DNA of 63,719 nt. Origin: a virus (taxonomy: Duplodnaviria; Caudoviricetes). The DNA lies in IMG/VR virus record IMGVR_UViG_3300027969_000100, positions 1-63,719 of that record. One strand, 5' to 3'. The notes under the pieces were generated by a model. It searched no databases, was not told the origin of the DNA, and saw only the letters and a list, made by a program, of their open reading frames with translations. The position numbers and the translations under genes were made by a program. Of this stretch, positions 47,036-55,862 are shown piece after piece; position 1 is the stretch's first letter, and the number at the start of each line of letters is the position of its first letter.

Positions 47036-48637
47036 ATGGAACCTAAAGATTTATTTTTAGCCCAGGAGGGCAGACTAAAGTTAATTTCTGGCATCAAGAA
47101 GATTGCCGGAGCGGTCAAGAGTACGTTGGGGCCATATGGCAACACGGTACTAATTGAGAGTCCTAATCACACGCATGGTATTACTGTAACTAAAGATGGG
47201 GTGACTGTCGCTAAGGCTGTTGACCTACTTGACCCTGTGGAGAACCTTGCGGTTAAGATGATGAAGGAGGCGGCTGATAGAACGGCTACTGCTGCTGGTG
47301 ATGGCACTACTACTGCCATAGTGTTGACAGAGGGGTTGGTACTTGGATGGTTGGAGCATATTGGCACTGAGCAGTTAAATAATACTGAGGTGCTACGCAA
47401 CATATCTGAGCTGAGCACTAAGGTGATTGAGGGGTTGAAGAAGAAGAGTAAGAAGGTCACTAACTCAATGCTGCTTGACGTGGCAACTATCTCTGCGAAC
47501 AATGACAGTCACATAGGTCGAATCATTGCTGATGTGTACAAGGAGGTGGGGAAGAATGGCATAGTAACGGTGGAGCGAAGCCAGACTGCTGACACATATG
47601 CTGAGACCACTAGGGGGTTAAAGATTGACAGGGGGTACACAAGCCCACTGTTCATCAACGATCAGAGTAGGGACGAGTGCGTATTTGAGGATGTACTGGT
47701 GCTGGTGGCTGACATTGAGATAAGTAATGTCTTGCAGATTGAGAACGTGTTGAAGCCAATCATACAGGAGGGGAAGAAGCTACTGATCGTATCTCCATGC
47801 CACGTGAACGTGGTGAATACCTTGGCGGCAAACGTGATGAAGAGTAACCTAAAGATGTGCGTGGTTCAACCACCGAGCTTCGGGTACCGACAGCATGAGC
47901 TGATGCAGGACCTGGCGGTGAGTGTTGGGGCCACATACTTCAGTGAGAAGACCGGGGATGACCTGAGTCAGATCACTATTGCTGACCTAGGGCATGCAGC
48001 CAGAGTGGTGGTTGGCAAGGACAAGACCATAATCCTCAAGTCAGACCTCAAGCTCGACACTGCAAAGGTCGAGGAGCGAGTGGCACAGCTATGGCAGGCA
48101 CATAAGATTGCTAAGAAGAAGGTTGACAAGGACCACCTGTTGGAGCGAATCGCCTCCCTTACGGGAGGGATAGGTGTGATATACGTAGGTGGGCAGACTG
48201 ACCTAGAGCAGAAGGAGCTGTACGACCGTGTTGACGATGCGGTGTGTGCGGTACGATCCGCTCTGGAGGAGGGCATACTACCAGGTGCAGGCAAGGCACT
48301 GCTTGACGAGAGTGCTGTGATCAGAAGAGACCTATTATTTAACTTAAGCAAGGAGTACAATGCTGCTGTTGAGATACTATCCAATGCGATGATGGCACCA
48401 TTCCAGCAGATCCTAGCTAACGCTGGCCTCAAGCCAAGTGACGTATACAAGGAGGCGATGCCTGTTGGGCACGGGTACAACCTAAAGACGGGGCAGATGG
48501 GTGACCTAGTACAGATGGGTGTGATTGACCCACTAAAGGTGACACGCAGTGCGTTACAGAACGCTGTGAGTGTAGCGACAACTATATTGAGTACTAACGC
48601 CATCATAACTATGGCACGATCATACGAGACTAGATAA
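47036..48637 (+). CDS. groEL: Chaperonin GroEL (Cpn60)
   Basis: TLGPYG, VTKDGVTVAK, AGDGTTTA, DRGYTSP, GILPGAG, GVIDPLKVTRSALQNAVSVA. Confidence 0.95.
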   Translation: MEPKDLFLAQEGRLKLISGIKKIAGAVKSTLGPYGNTVLIESPNHTHGITVTKDGVTVAKAVDLLDPVENLAVKMMKEAADRTATAAGDGTTTAIVLTEGLVLGWLEHIGTEQLNNTEVLRNISELSTKVIEGLKKKSKKVTNSMLLDVATISANNDSHIGRIIADVYKEVGKNGIVTVERSQTADTYAETTRGLKIDRGYTSPLFINDQSRDECVFEDVLVLVADIEISNVLQIENVLKPIIQEGKKLLIVSPCHVNVVNTLAANVMKSNLKMCVVQPPSFGYRQHELMQDLAVSVGATYFSEKTGDDLSQITIADLGHAARVVVGKDKTIILKSDLKLDTAKVEERVAQLWQAHKIAKKKVDKDHLLERIASLTGGIGVIYVGGQTDLEQKELYDRVDDAVCAVRSALEEGILPGAGKALLDESAVIRRDLLFNLSKEYNAAVEILSNAMMAPFQQILANAGLKPSDVYKEAMPVGHGYNLKTGQMGDLVQMGVIDPLKVTRSALQNAVSVATTILSTNAIITMARSYETR

Positions 48638-49490: not shown

Positions 49491-50027
49491 TTAGAATAAC
49501 TTTTTGCTTATACCTATCTGGTGAATATTCTGTAGTGGCTGGTACTGGTACTCAAACATGTACTTGTTGTCCAAGTAGGCAACTTTTGCGCCTGGTTGTA
49601 GCAGAGAGTTGACCGATGCGCCTAGATATAATCCTTTGCTCTTCTTTATAATTGTCTTAGTCTCTGTGTTCGTAACCGTATTGGTTACCACAGGGATTTT
49701 AAAATCGTTTGTAACGCTCATTTTAAGTACCTCTCCGAGGACTTCTCCACTAACGTAGGTGTTACCATACTCGAAAGGAGTCGTGGTGCTGAACAAGCTT
49801 ATAGTAGGCTTATATTCTTCTAGAACTGTATCCCTAACAAACTGTGATTTTATCCACATTTTCGGCACATAAACTGTGTCCTTGACCTCGATAATCAAAG
49901 TGTCCGTATTTGTCACGCTTTCAAATTTATAAACCGTTTCTTCTTCAGGCTTTGGCATTATAATAAATGCTAAAATTATTCCTGCTATAAAAGAAATGAT
50001 TGATGTAAGTATTCTCTTGTCTTCCAT
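49491..50027 (-). CDS. N-terminally membrane-anchored protein (possible spanin-like)
   Basis: N-terminal TM, DTL/DTV repeats, beta-rich C-terminus ending in F. Confidence 0.45.
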   Translation of the reverse strand: MEDKRILTSIISFIAGIILAFIIMPKPEEETVYKFESVTNTDTLIIEVKDTVYVPKMWIKSQFVRDTVLEEYKPTISLFSTTTPFEYGNTYVSGEVLGEVLKMSVTNDFKIPVVTNTVTNTETKTIIKKSKGLYLGASVNSLLQPGAKVAYLDNKYMFEYQYQPLQNIHQIGISKKLF

Positions 50028-51126: not shown

Positions 51127-51330
51127 CAGAAGCTTATTTGTTGTCCATAAAGTTACTATTATTTTTTATTTTTCAAATTCGTTTATTATATTGGCAACAC
51201 AAAAATAATATTATGGCACTAAACGAAAGGGATTATCGGAACTTCATAGATGGGCTTCTGATAGGGGTTGTATTCGGTGTAGTTGTTTCTAGTATTTTGT
51301 TTCTGGTCTTTACATAACTATATTTGTAGT

Positions 51331-51588
51331 ATGAAAGCTATAGGAAAAAATATTGTAATCAAATCAATTGACGAGGAAGTAAAGACTTCTTCAGGATTAG
51401 TCCTATCTGGTGAGGACACCAACCAATTACGCTACAAGCGTGGAGTAGTAATCAACTCAGGGACAGAGGTAAGTTCAATCAAGCCAGGAGACAACGTGTA
51501 CTACGACAAGGCGAACAGCTATGTGATGATCATCAATGATGAGCACTGCGTAATTATTCAGGAACGTGACGTAGTTCTTGTCCTGTGA
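51331..51588 (+). CDS. groES: Co-chaperonin GroES (Cpn10)
   Basis: MKAIGKNIVI...KTSSGLVL...GVVINSG...IKPGDNVYY...IIQERDVV. Confidence 0.85.
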   Translation: MKAIGKNIVIKSIDEEVKTSSGLVLSGEDTNQLRYKRGVVINSGTEVSSIKPGDNVYYDKANSYVMIINDEHCVIIQERDVVLVL

Positions 51589-52080: not shown

Positions 52081-53092
52081 ATGCAACCTTGCACTCAAAA
52101 AGTTAAATCCGCAACCTCTTACAAACCAAAGAAAAAATGAAGGGAGATCAAATGATGGCCATGGGTATGCCCAAAGCCGCAGTTCTAAAAGGAGCCGTTA
52201 AAGGCGCAGCTAAAGGCGCAAAGAAGGCAGTAGTTAAGAAAGCCGTTAAAAAAGCAATGGCTAAAAAGAAGTATTAATGGCTGAGAAGTCTACAATGAAA
52301 TGTAACCGTGTCGTTGCTTCTGACAGACCCGGCAAGAAGAGAATGGTAAAGGCTTGTGCTAATGGACAAGAGAAGCTAATTCACTTTGGTGCCGAGGGTT
52401 ATGGTCATAACTATTCAGCAGCGGCACGGTCTTCATTTAAGGCTCGTCACAAATGCGATAGTGCTACAGATAAATTATCTGCTAAGTACTGGGCATGTAA
52501 GAACTTATGGGCAGGTCCTGGAGGATCTACCAAATCATCACCTAAGAGTAAGAGAGGGAAGTACTAATGAAACAAGTAATTAAGAAGGCGGCTAAGTTTG
52601 AATCTAAAAAATCTTTAGATGGTCCTATGAAATTTCTTAAAGGCAATGTAGGCAAAACTACAAAAGGATTCCCTGATACAAGTGGAGATGGGAAAATTAC
52701 TAAGAAAGACATATTGATTGCTAAGGGAGTTCTTACTAAGAAGAAAAAATAAGATGCCAAAGGACTCTTGCTACAAAAAGGTAAAGGCATCGTATGATGT
52801 GTTCCCTTCTGCTAGGGCATCCCAGGCTATTGCTAAGTGTCGTAAGGCATCTGGTTCAGTTCGAAAAACTGAATCAGGTACATCACTGAAAAGATGGGAG
52901 AAAGAGAAGTGGCAGGATACCAAGAGTGGTAAAGCGTGTGGTGCTGGTGGACGTAATGAGTACTGCCGACCAACATTGAGAGTATCAGAAAAAACACCAA
53001 AGACTAAGAGTGAAATAAGTCCAGCAAAACTTTCCGCTAAAAAATTAGAGAAGGCTAGAGTTGGTATGGGTAAAAGAATTTCCAAAGTTTAA
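52081..53092 (+). CDS. Operon of small, very basic proteins (52081-52140, 52137-52277, 52277-52567, 52567-52752, 52754-53092)
   Basis: Lys/Ala-rich ORFs mostly with stop/start overlaps; one has an EF-hand-like DTSGDGKITKKD. Confidence 0.65.
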
Positions 53093-54025: not shown

Positions 54026-54310
54026 ATGAATACTCACGAGAATAGTAGGCTTGATTATATGGCAGCTGAATTGGATGCGTTAAAGAATGACGTGGCTGAA
54101 GTGAAAGCTATCGTAAAGGATATGCACACTTTGCTCTCAGGTAATCCCATTGACAAGGACTCTAATGGAATGATTGGAGACTTAAGGACAATGAAGAAAG
54201 AAGTTTACGAATTGAAGTCTGAATTAAAGAAATACAAGAATTATTTTTATGCACTTGTCACACTTGTTGGGTTGGGGGCATTAAAAGTTATTGTTGAAAT
54301 ATTAAAGTAG
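54026..54310 (+). CDS. Coiled-coil protein with C-terminal TM (holin/XhlA-like candidate)
   Basis: Heptad N-terminus plus hydrophobic YFYALVTLVGLGALKVIVEIL. Confidence 0.5.
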   Translation: MNTHENSRLDYMAAELDALKNDVAEVKAIVKDMHTLLSGNPIDKDSNGMIGDLRTMKKEVYELKSELKKYKNYFYALVTLVGLGALKVIVEILK

Positions 54311-54311
54311 A

Positions 54312-54434
54312 ATGGCAAAGGCAGTCGCAAGTGTAAGGAAAATTAGCTTTGGTAAAAAGAGAACAGGTGTAGCTAAAAAGTCATACGGTAAGTATAATGA
54401 GAAGCCTAAAAAATATCGAGGACAAGGTAGATGA
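54312..54434 (+). CDS. 40-aa basic peptide ending KKYRGQGR
   Basis: Translated from the sequence; its TGA overlaps the ATG of the next gene. Confidence 0.65.
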   Translation: MAKAVASVRKISFGKKRTGVAKKSYGKYNEKPKKYRGQGR

Positions 54435-54655
54435 AAAAATTATTTGATTGGTTAAAAGGCTTCTTGTCTGAAAATGGAGAAGCATCTTCTAAAAGATTTG
54501 TTGGAGTATTTGCTGCAATAGCTTTGTGCTATACGCTTTATGCCAACCATGATTCGGCTAACGAACCATCAGAAGCTTTAGTTTATTCGGTTGCTGCTTT
54601 ATCTGCTGCTGCTTTAGGTATTACGGCAGCTGAGAAGATATTCAAGAAGGAATGA
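54431..54655 (+). CDS. Putative holin (2 TM)
   Basis: 74 aa, SSKRF followed by two hydrophobic helices and a charged C-terminus; upstream of the endolysin. Confidence 0.6.
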   Translation: MKKLFDWLKGFLSENGEASSKRFVGVFAAIALCYTLYANHDSANEPSEALVYSVAALSAAALGITAAEKIFKKE

Positions 54656-55404
54656 AGAACTTAAGCAAGGAGGAACTACTAAGTCGAATGGAGGCAATTA
54701 ATCGTAGCAATGCGATTATTTACTTTGACTTAAATGGTTTTATCCTTGGAGTAAACGCTATCTTCTTAGAGGCTATGGGCTTTGCTGAAGATGAGCATGA
54801 TAAGCTGATTGGAAAGCACCATTCGATTTTTGTCAGCTACGAATATTCTAAGTCTGAAGACTATACAAAATTCTGGGAAATGCTTCGGGCTGGAAAATTT
54901 TACGAAGGTGAATTTGAAAGAAGAAAGATAGATGGTAGACCTATTTATTTGCAGGCTACATACAATCCTATCTTTGACGAAAGCGGTACTATCACTAAGA
55001 TAATGAAGATAGCTACCGACATTAGCCAAACTATTGTAAGTAAAAATAAGATTGGCGAACTATCTAAAAGTTTGCAGGCTGAGTTAGAAAACTCAAATAA
55101 GTTAAGGGCAGCAATTGAGATTGAAAAGGATGCAGCTGTTAATGACTTAGATGCTACCATTAAGAAAAGTCAAAACGAGCTCATTAAAGTAATTGTAAAG
55201 TCTGCCTTGTTCGTAATTATGAGTGTTGGATTTATTACAACGATAATGTACTCGTTTGCTATTCTATCGGATAAGGATACGCAAATCATTGGATCTACTT
55301 GGTCAAATATGTTTTCGGTTTTATTGACGAATGCCTTCTCTATTGTCGGCACAATCATGGGAATTAAGTACGCAACTTCAGAAGATAAAAAAAATAAGGA
55401 ATGA
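54652..55404 (+). CDS. PAS/PAC domain-coiled coil-2TM membrane protein
   Basis: AINRSNAIIYFDLNG...GKHHSIFV...FWEMLRAG...GEFERRK...YLQATYNPIFDESG...KIATDIS matches chemoreceptor-type PAS; two C-terminal hydrophobic helices. Confidence 0.85.
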   Translation: MKNLSKEELLSRMEAINRSNAIIYFDLNGFILGVNAIFLEAMGFAEDEHDKLIGKHHSIFVSYEYSKSEDYTKFWEMLRAGKFYEGEFERRKIDGRPIYLQATYNPIFDESGTITKIMKIATDISQTIVSKNKIGELSKSLQAELENSNKLRAAIEIEKDAAVNDLDATIKKSQNELIKVIVKSALFVIMSVGFITTIMYSFAILSDKDTQIIGSTWSNMFSVLLTNAFSIVGTIMGIKYATSEDKKNKE

Positions 55405-55862
55405 AAATTAGCACTCACCTAAGTATTGCCGAGATTACTAGAAGTGATTCTGCAAAACGTCACGGAATTGACAACACTCCTACTGCCGAGCATTTGGAGA
55501 ACTTTAAGTTACTAGCTGAGAAAGTATTCGAGCCCATTCGTGAACACTTCGGAGTTCCTATTTTTATTAGCTCTGGGTACAGAAGCAAGGCTCTCAATGA
55601 TTTCATTAAGGGGAGTTTATCCAGTCAGCATTGCAAGGGCGAAGCGATTGATATCGATATGGATGGGGGGAATGGAGAGGTAACTAATAGAATGGTATTT
55701 GATTTCATAAAAAATAAGTTAGACTTTGATCAGTTGATTTGGGAGTTTGGAACTGACTTTAACCCGGATTGGGTACACGTATCATACACTAAAGGCAAGA
55801 ACAGAAAGCAAAAGTTAAAAGCTGTGCGTACGAATGGTAAGACTTCTTACCTTAATCTTTAG
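55401..55862 (+). CDS. Endolysin, peptidase M15A family
   Basis: ISSGYRS...SQHCKGEAIDID...FDQLIWEF...WVHVSY. Confidence 0.9.
   Translation: MKISTHLSIAEITRSDSAKRHGIDNTPTAEHLENFKLLAEKVFEPIREHFGVPIFISSGYRSKALNDFIKGSLSSQHCKGEAIDIDMDGGNGEVTNRMVFDFIKNKLDFDQLIWEFGTDFNPDWVHVSYTKGKNRKQKLKAVRTNGKTSYLNL

Follow-up and report, generated by a model that had tools for sequence, protein, structure and literature searches.

A widespread viral sensor-to-membrane module encoded beside phage lysis genes, with a plausible role in lysis control

We have analysed a virus record of 63,719 bases over its whole length (IMG/VR record IMGVR_UViG_3300027969_000100, Duplodnaviria; Caudoviricetes; hereafter the window), and in particular a 250-aa protein of its lysis cassette that joins a PAS domain to a coiled coil and two C-terminal transmembrane (TM) helices (Table 1). 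Three open reading frames (ORFs), of 74, 250 and 153 aa, follow one another on the + strand, and ATGA stop/start overlaps are present at both junctions, just as a preliminary description of this DNA had reported. The last gene had been taken for an M15 endolysin, and the Pfam (E=5.9e-19) and PHROG endolysin (E=1.9e-34) matches agree on this identity. The first had been called a holin-like protein with two TM helices; its size, its hydrophobicity and the neighbouring endolysin are in line with this label, but it matches no known holin family and its first hydrophobic stretch is marginal (hydropathy 1.23).

Table 1 Features of the 250-aa protein and of the surrounding cassette in the window. The pN/pS values are taken over 16 genes, in a comparison where synonymous sites are near saturation.
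Feature	Position	Strand	pN/pS	Support
Sensor-membrane protein of 250 aa, with PAS, coiled coil and a pair of membrane helices at the C-terminus (one-component module form)	54652..55404	+		
PAS domain, AerC/BdlA-like, aa 10-125	54679..55026	+	0.14	
Coiled-coil linker, aa 126-176	55027..55179	+	0.19	
First membrane helix, about aa 177-205, sequence variable	55180..55266	+	0.26	
Short loop and second membrane helix, aa 210-242; module signature	55279..55377	+	0.047	
Small 74-aa membrane protein; its holin-like label comes from size, hydrophobicity and position only	54431..54655	+		
Peptidase M15 endolysin, 153 aa	55401..55862	+		Pfam, PHROG
40-codon Lys/Arg-rich basic ORF, under the cut-off of the ORF list; ATGA overlap of its stop with the 74-aa gene start	54312..54434	+		
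94-aa coiled-coil protein with C-terminal hydrophobic stretch; upstream, same cassette	54026..54310	+		

In the 250-aa protein, Pfam finds a PAS_9 domain at aa 22-126 (E=6.5e-11), with PAS and PAS_3 also above the cut-off, and no output domain at E<=1. The AlphaFold model (pLDDT 75.5, pTM 0.45) shows a PAS fold followed by a helix at aa 125-205, which extends to form the first membrane segment, and, after a short loop, by another helix at aa 211-246. Hydropathy peaks at 2.21 in the interval from aa 177 and at 1.76 at aa 220, and both ends of the protein are predicted to lie inside. That is, Pfam, the model and hydropathy all support the layout proposed earlier, a PAS domain, a coiled coil and a TM pair with no kinase, methyl-accepting chemotaxis protein (MCP) or DNA-binding output. 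Searches of Pfam, PHROGs and NCBIfam give no known holin family for the protein, and with PADLOC, which has no match for its membrane part, they assign no family to the coiled-coil–two-helix part, hereafter called the module. ESM Atlas has no matches for this part either.

Several other identities have been considered and rejected. Automatic annotations label homologs of the 250-aa protein as 'methyl-accepting chemotaxis protein', and no MCP signalling domain (PF00015) is found in it at E<=1. It is not a sensor histidine kinase, as the HisKA and HATPase domains are absent, and an inner spanin does not fit, since such a protein would have an N-terminal membrane anchor and a periplasmic coiled coil, whereas here the coil comes after a PAS domain of cytoplasmic type and the helices lie at the C-terminus. 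A LOV photoreceptor is rejected as well: LOV domains top the fold search, though the protein is without any Cys, and so lacks the flavin-adduct cysteine.

All parts of the protein are under purifying selection (pN/pS 0.05-0.26), and the lowest value falls on the loop and second helix. This helix contains many small and polar residues, is invariant across 20 aligned PAS forms, and is mostly kept in the non-fused relatives described below, among which the coiled-coil linker varies widely in length. Such selection in every part largely refutes the idea that we are dealing with a functionless relic of a host chemoreceptor or kinase. It is true that cellular chemoreceptors share the PAS type (38-50% identity) and that the automatic annotations speak of chemotaxis, but there are thousands of intact copies, the MCP signalling domain is missing, and the nearest relatives are phage-type kinases of 474 aa, with 53-61% identity. 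A relic is therefore hardly credible.

The PAS domain had been proposed to be a redox-type sensor resembling that of BdlA, for whose PAS-A heme has been reported. Its nearest solved relatives by sequence are PAS-A of MmoS (3EWK, E=1.6e-9) and the PAS domains of Aer (8DIK, E=2.6e-4) and NifL (2GJ3, E=0.021). All three bind flavin adenine dinucleotide (FAD) and also appear among the fold-search matches of the window PAS, although the identity is only ~25% and their outputs are a kinase or chemotaxis. His57 (54820-54822) and Trp75 (54874-54876) align with the His and Trp of the FAD-binding MmoS and Aer domains, and the two residues are kept in 121/122 and 90/90 motif matches; at the Asn position of the Aer/MmoS-type alignment, the window PAS has Arg90. 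According to the accessible part of PMC10468136, Trp is the main FAD determinant, accompanied by His in cluster 9, by Asn in cluster 4 and by both in cluster 14, and the AerC FAD cluster 9 is described there as having Trp and His but no Asn. The cluster-defining positions are fixed in supplementary figures of that source, and have been assigned here by alignment with 3EWK and 8DIK. By this alignment the window domain, with its PAS fold, Trp and His, fits cluster 9 (AerC type), and FAD binding is predicted. BdlA and McpS are likewise predicted FAD binders in the accessible text of PMC8694187. As far as these sources go, the AerC, BdlA and McpS chemoreceptors share the PAS type, as one domain or as a tandem, in which Trp and His are conserved and the Asn of the Aer/NifL clusters is missing; the window protein differs in being viral and in carrying a membrane hairpin in place of the methyl-accepting domain. 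Overall, the presence of the FAD-sensor residues and the purifying selection on them speak for the proposed redox-type sensor.

In the search with aa 125-250, 4,887 of 5,001 candidates passed, and a profile of the last 76 residues retrieved 100 representatives, of all lengths, among 1.84 billion. In IMG/VR, 242 of 264 stretches were confirmed and 80 were kept as loci. Within 2.5 kb of the PAS gene these loci contain a member of the 74-aa family in 59 cases, M15 in 39, GH19 in 27 and a GH24 lysozyme in 9. In addition, 310 module ORFs (loci L001-L311) were grouped into 100 clusters at 90% identity, of which the 77 with 2.5 kb on both sides were counted and the 23 with shorter flanks were set aside. 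A stand-alone form without PAS was rejected, as its short matches mostly start at internal methionines on short contigs, and many 50% representatives with odd N-termini, which resemble assembly chimeras, were ignored.

Twenty of the counted clusters are PAS-fused. An endolysin is near in 19 of them, the holin-like family in 16, and one or the other in all 20, and the nearest lysis gene is at most 101 bp away in 19, lying upstream of the PAS gene in part of the clusters and downstream of it in the rest. No neighbour of the PAS gene is commoner than the holin-like family, which often overlaps it; the most frequent other neighbour family reaches only 5/20. The endolysins beside PAS forms, whose representatives were confirmed by Pfam or PHROGs, are of four types (M15, GH19, GH24 and phrog_3000-type) in shuffled gene order. 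We estimate the chance expectation at roughly 10% or less for a ~6 kb interval in genomes of at least 60 kb, so the link of the PAS-fused form with lysis genes is far above chance. Both clusters of a GAF-fused form have a lysis gene nearby too. Among metagenome contigs not selected as viral, a lysis marker is found in 65/80 loci, and in 27/28 of those with 1.5 kb flanks. The PAS-fused clusters and these metagenome loci thus bear out the expectation of viral, lysis-linked homologs.

The preliminary description had called the protein an orphan sensor, and this label needs to be changed, since its relatives lie in a phage two-component operon. Most full-length representatives of the module carry a different N-terminal domain of ~75 aa without a family match; the other N-termini are one or two window-type PAS domains, an Aer/MmoS-type PAS (P0256, one sequence) or a GAF domain (P0252, 7 members). 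In 49 of 50 clusters of the non-fused form, genes for a PAS/GAF-HATPase histidine kinase and a lone receiver precede the module gene, and receiver and module genes overlap in 39/66 pairs. Near the fused forms, a kinase or receiver is found in 0/20 PAS and 0/2 GAF clusters. The receiver catalytic residues, with invariant Asp, Ser and Lys, do not vary in 60 aligned sequences, and the His box of the kinase is visible in the sequences, with no match to Pfam HisKA. Judged by sequence, the relatives (L081-L311) have what a two-component system calls for, namely a HATPase kinase and a receiver with an acidic pocket, a phospho-Asp, a Ser/Thr and a Lys. A receiver profile has no match in the window genome or in 20 records of the fused type, of which 9 are 90% complete or more (controls 5/5), and HATPase is likewise absent from the window genome (control positive 14/14).

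What is new here is that the coiled-coil–two-helix module also stands behind a phage histidine kinase and receiver, with a different N-terminal domain. The module behaves like a sensor output, with three kinds of sensor domain or else a kinase and receiver coupled to it, which gives the proposed output role of the membrane part stronger support from context than the preliminary description could see. A predicted complex between the receiver and the N-terminal domain of the kinase-linked form scored 0.15 (mark 0.32), which is no evidence either way. The fold search with the kinase-linked form gave unrelated helical hairpins (best Z 9.0, rmsd 2.3, 97 aligned) and barely tested the N-terminal domain, and in ESM Atlas this form leads only to all-viral unnamed clusters. 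In a scan of 185,579 GTDB species, with patterns that fit the kinase-linked form only, 4/96 matches were confirmed. All are on contigs of metagenome-assembled genomes (L161-L164) labelled as four bacterial groups, and are probably mis-binned phage DNA, judging by virus-like neighbours in the parts examined.

The kinase operons hold further genes. The PAS-kinase operon includes another kinase in L162 (4347-5570) and L300 (2871-4319), which starts with a signal-peptide-like stretch and has a large domain that is probably extracytoplasmic. Three other proteins are a 62-aa two-helix protein upstream (L085:1873-2061), a 162-167 aa multi-helix protein that sometimes lies between receiver and module (L100:3251-3751), and a 176-aa soluble protein downstream (L094:4351-4881); their representatives have no Pfam matches and a single weak PHROG match.

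The sensors of the fused forms point to phage kinases. Residues 1-126 of the window protein share 56% identity with the corresponding residues (aa 1-126) of phage kinases, for example that of L271, and the sensors of the GAF and Aer-type fusions match phage-kinase sensors at 60-64% and 69-72%. In an unrooted module tree with rough supports (115 rows, 90 columns, 8 short clusters left out), the PAS fusions group together (100/100), and the GAF fusions make up a separate branch (100/92) beside P0256 (94/80). There were likely at least two separate fusion events. The fusions may have arisen by loss of the kinase core, the receiver and the docking domain. Because the window PAS is kinase-like in identity and no kinase or receiver lies near the fused forms, the window gene looks like a one-component shortcut of a hitherto undescribed viral two-component system with a membrane output.

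Overall, a viral sensor-to-membrane module that is real, selected, widespread and of no known family has been found, and a role of it in lysis control is plausible. We give even chances to the reading that the PAS protein is an accessory, signal-responsive inner-membrane effector, which is co-expressed with the lysis genes and shifts the time of lysis. Holin timing depends on membrane energy. In the proposed mechanism, the cytoplasmic PAS domain would bind FAD and report the redox or respiratory state of the host, and the coiled coil would relay this signal to the membrane hairpin, which may self-associate via the conserved second helix. The switched assembly could then advance or delay holin triggering, in either direction, most simply by leaking or protecting the membrane potential, and lysis time would follow the host energy state. 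Energy poisons trigger holins and end lysis inhibition according to the accessible part of PMC7182436, and nothing more than a gated leak of the membrane potential, or a gated brake on it, would then be needed to move the lysis time. The uncertainty of this mechanism lies in its redox input and its lysis output.

A different reading keeps the signal-responsive membrane effector and gives it a job other than lysis, such as superinfection exclusion, holding or dropping the host membrane potential, or coiled-coil interference with a host membrane kinase or receptor. The gene would then sit by the lysis genes for late, strong expression, within a collection of membrane genes. This reading draws on the kinase-linked clusters, which have a lysis marker within 2.5 kb in 31/50 cases on the same strand and 35/50 on either strand, that is, none on either strand in 15/50. 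Two loci with a PAS form (L467 and L469) likewise show no lysis marker in the available flanks, the slot of the PAS gene is interchangeable among sister phages, and the second helix, which does not track the divergence of the holin-like family, would fit a conserved host target. Against it stand the 19/20 PAS clusters with a lysis gene within 101 bp, in both orders and with four endolysin types, as well as the low count of any other neighbour (at most 5/20) and the separately arisen GAF forms, which also lie beside lysis genes. Moreover, 25 large records were searched, and the holin-like family was found in 10 of them, at most 5.4 kb from the module in 8 (4/6 clusters). We therefore consider a non-lysis job rather unlikely. 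The loci L467 (2624-3610) and L469 (537-1646) show a tandem-PAS module amid many small N-terminally anchored proteins without PHROG matches, and possibly represent a different, membrane-containing virus type.

Whether the PAS protein could itself be the holin is answered by the sister cassettes. With an upstream 85-aa gene as the anchor, which is independent of the module, 65/80 loci have enough downstream DNA, and these include 19 sister cassettes with a holin-like gene and an endolysin. The module is present in 3 and absent in 16, so the PAS protein is accessory and not an essential holin, and the earlier suggestion that its TM pair acts as the holin is not upheld. Sister phages that lack the PAS gene retain the 94-aa coiled-coil gene. 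If the PAS protein were an additional holin or pinholin, gated by its sensor and allowing the endolysin to act, this would agree with two membrane helices, ends predicted inside and a polar, invariant second helix, and in four loci (L031, L042, L044, L063) an endolysin adjoins the PAS gene with no 74-aa family member. Nevertheless, most sister cassettes do without the PAS protein, no holin family is matched, and in loci of the L031 and L044 type a Pfam Phage_holin_4_1-like or other multi-helix gene is close by. This makes a pinholin very improbable.

The preliminary description had also favoured direct binding of the 74-aa protein by the PAS protein, as an antiholin or holin partner gated through its PAS domain. 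It is correct that the PAS gene is encoded beside the holin-like gene, whose family is the commonest neighbour (16/20, often overlapping), and signal-relaying antiholins are known, namely T4 RI and ICP1 ArrA (PMC7182436, accessible part). However, the second helix is invariant across phages whose holin-like genes are only ~20-25% identical, 4/20 PAS clusters have no holin-like family nearby, and in L314 and L326 the M15 gene directly follows a close homolog of the 74-aa gene, with no PAS gene between. The contrast between a near-invariant helix and diverging partners favours self-assembly or a conserved target over holin binding; as far as the alignments tell, the helix fits self-association or such a target better than co-evolution with the holin. 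Together with the 15/50 kinase-linked clusters that lack a marker, this weakens the case for a dedicated holin partner, which we regard as improbable.

Other small membrane genes take the same slot in sister phages. In L318 (4883-5439) and L321, it is taken by two genes, one for a 93-aa protein that matches a PHROG holin (E=2.9e-15) and one for a 92-aa protein with several helices, so that these phages have more than one holin candidate. In L324 (4903-5551) and L325, it holds a 95-aa membrane/coiled-coil gene and a lipoprotein-like gene of 112-119 aa. This latter pair, which has no PHROG match, also adjoins the holin-like gene in L345, L323 and L357, and is possibly an unlisted spanin-like pair.

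Several of the observations weigh against an accessory effector of lysis time. The PAS gene is dispensable in the 16 sister cassettes, and since its slot holds varied membrane genes, the position may simply be a hot spot for late membrane genes. The lysis-marker profiles were built from neighbours in the same loci. The 74-aa protein has no Pfam or PHROG match and a sole NCBIfam match at E=0.079, and its family had no confirmation of the kind obtained for the endolysins. The markerless kinase-linked clusters and the loci L467 and L469 belong here too, as do the 2/10 large records in which the holin-like gene is more than 150 kb away, and L279, where the non-fused form has neither kinase nor receiver nearby. 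Among cultured or deposited phages there is no full-length match to the PAS protein (3 records match its PAS part only), and none to the kinase-linked form or the 74-aa protein. In RNA data, one 272-base contig (one run, small share) lies at 54149-54420, off the PAS gene. Finally, we infer FAD binding, oligomerisation and ion leak alike.

On the broader reading, aquatic phages would carry a sensor-to-membrane pathway of their own, in two-component and fused forms, and set the lysis time by the redox or energy state of the host; in our judgement its probability falls just short of even. If true, lysis timing would come under a cofactor-binding sensor, and a phage membrane protein would serve as the output of a two-component system. 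Phages could then choose between early release and larger bursts as oxygen and respiration change, for example in lakes. Even without a lysis role, this would be a widespread signalling module, apparently specific to viruses, in which PAS, GAF and kinase/receiver inputs are interchangeable.

Compared with known systems, the antiholins of T4 (RI/T) and ICP1 (ArrA/TeaA) resemble the proposed function, as accessory genes that may tune holin timing to a signal in a process sensitive to the proton-motive force. Their signal, however, is superinfection, and they have no small-molecule sensor domain as described in the accessible part of PMC7182436. The 250-aa protein has no sequence match to these antiholin families in Pfam or PHROG searches. 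VqmA of vibriophage VP882 is also a phage PAS sensor that links a signal to host lysis. It differs, going by the accessible part of bioRxiv 10.1101/2021.04.15.439952, in joining PAS to a DNA-binding domain and in sensing an autoinducer; it acts transcriptionally on the lysis-lysogeny switch via Qtip, is not a membrane protein and lies outside the lysis cassette. The claim that no PAS-gated lysis system is known thus holds for the literature found, but has to be narrowed, as the VqmA PAS already starts a lytic programme via transcription.

The relatives' operon resembles two-component systems with a CheY-like receiver in its PAS/GAF HATPase kinase and lone receiver. It is unlike them in being phage-encoded and in having as its putative target an adjacent membrane module of no known family, and the window phage itself has neither kinase nor receiver. 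Cap15, Csx23, Cam1 and RexB are ligand-gated two-TM defence effectors, in which a sensor with membrane helices assembles and depolarises the cell. By analogy they could serve as a model for the proposed mechanism, although they are host defence genes and sense nucleotides. In a full-text literature search, with most subscription journals outside it, we found no PAS protein in a lysis cassette and no description of a phage operon of kinase, receiver and membrane module. Superinfection-driven lysis inhibition was the only sensing described there at the holin-timing step. Neither VqmA nor the T4 and ICP1 antiholins share the architecture of the viral sensor-to-membrane module in the accessible descriptions.

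As for the rest of the window, the protein presumed to be the major capsid protein has matches in 85 phage records, of which 68 are from Flavobacterium, 15 from Cellulophaga, 1 from Maribacter and 1 uncultured, and since these are mostly Flavobacterium and Cellulophaga phages, the host should belong to the Bacteroidota. A promoter/terminator scan of the window stayed near chance level (9 versus 11.2, and 6 versus 2.9 with a standard deviation of 1.9). From their translations, we take 47036-48637 (+) to be GroEL-like and 51283-51588 (-) to be GroES-like. Basic peptides of 45-57 aa, resembling the 40-codon ORF of the cassette, recur near the module in other loci, and a DUF5872 protein (52718-53092, +; Pfam E=4.8e-12) lies amid small basic late genes. 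A 178-aa protein with an N-terminal hydrophobic stretch is encoded at 49491-50027 (-), and the Pfam search of one representative gave no match. Its homologs are found near the PAS gene and endolysin in 15/80 loci, and it is possibly an envelope-lysis accessory.

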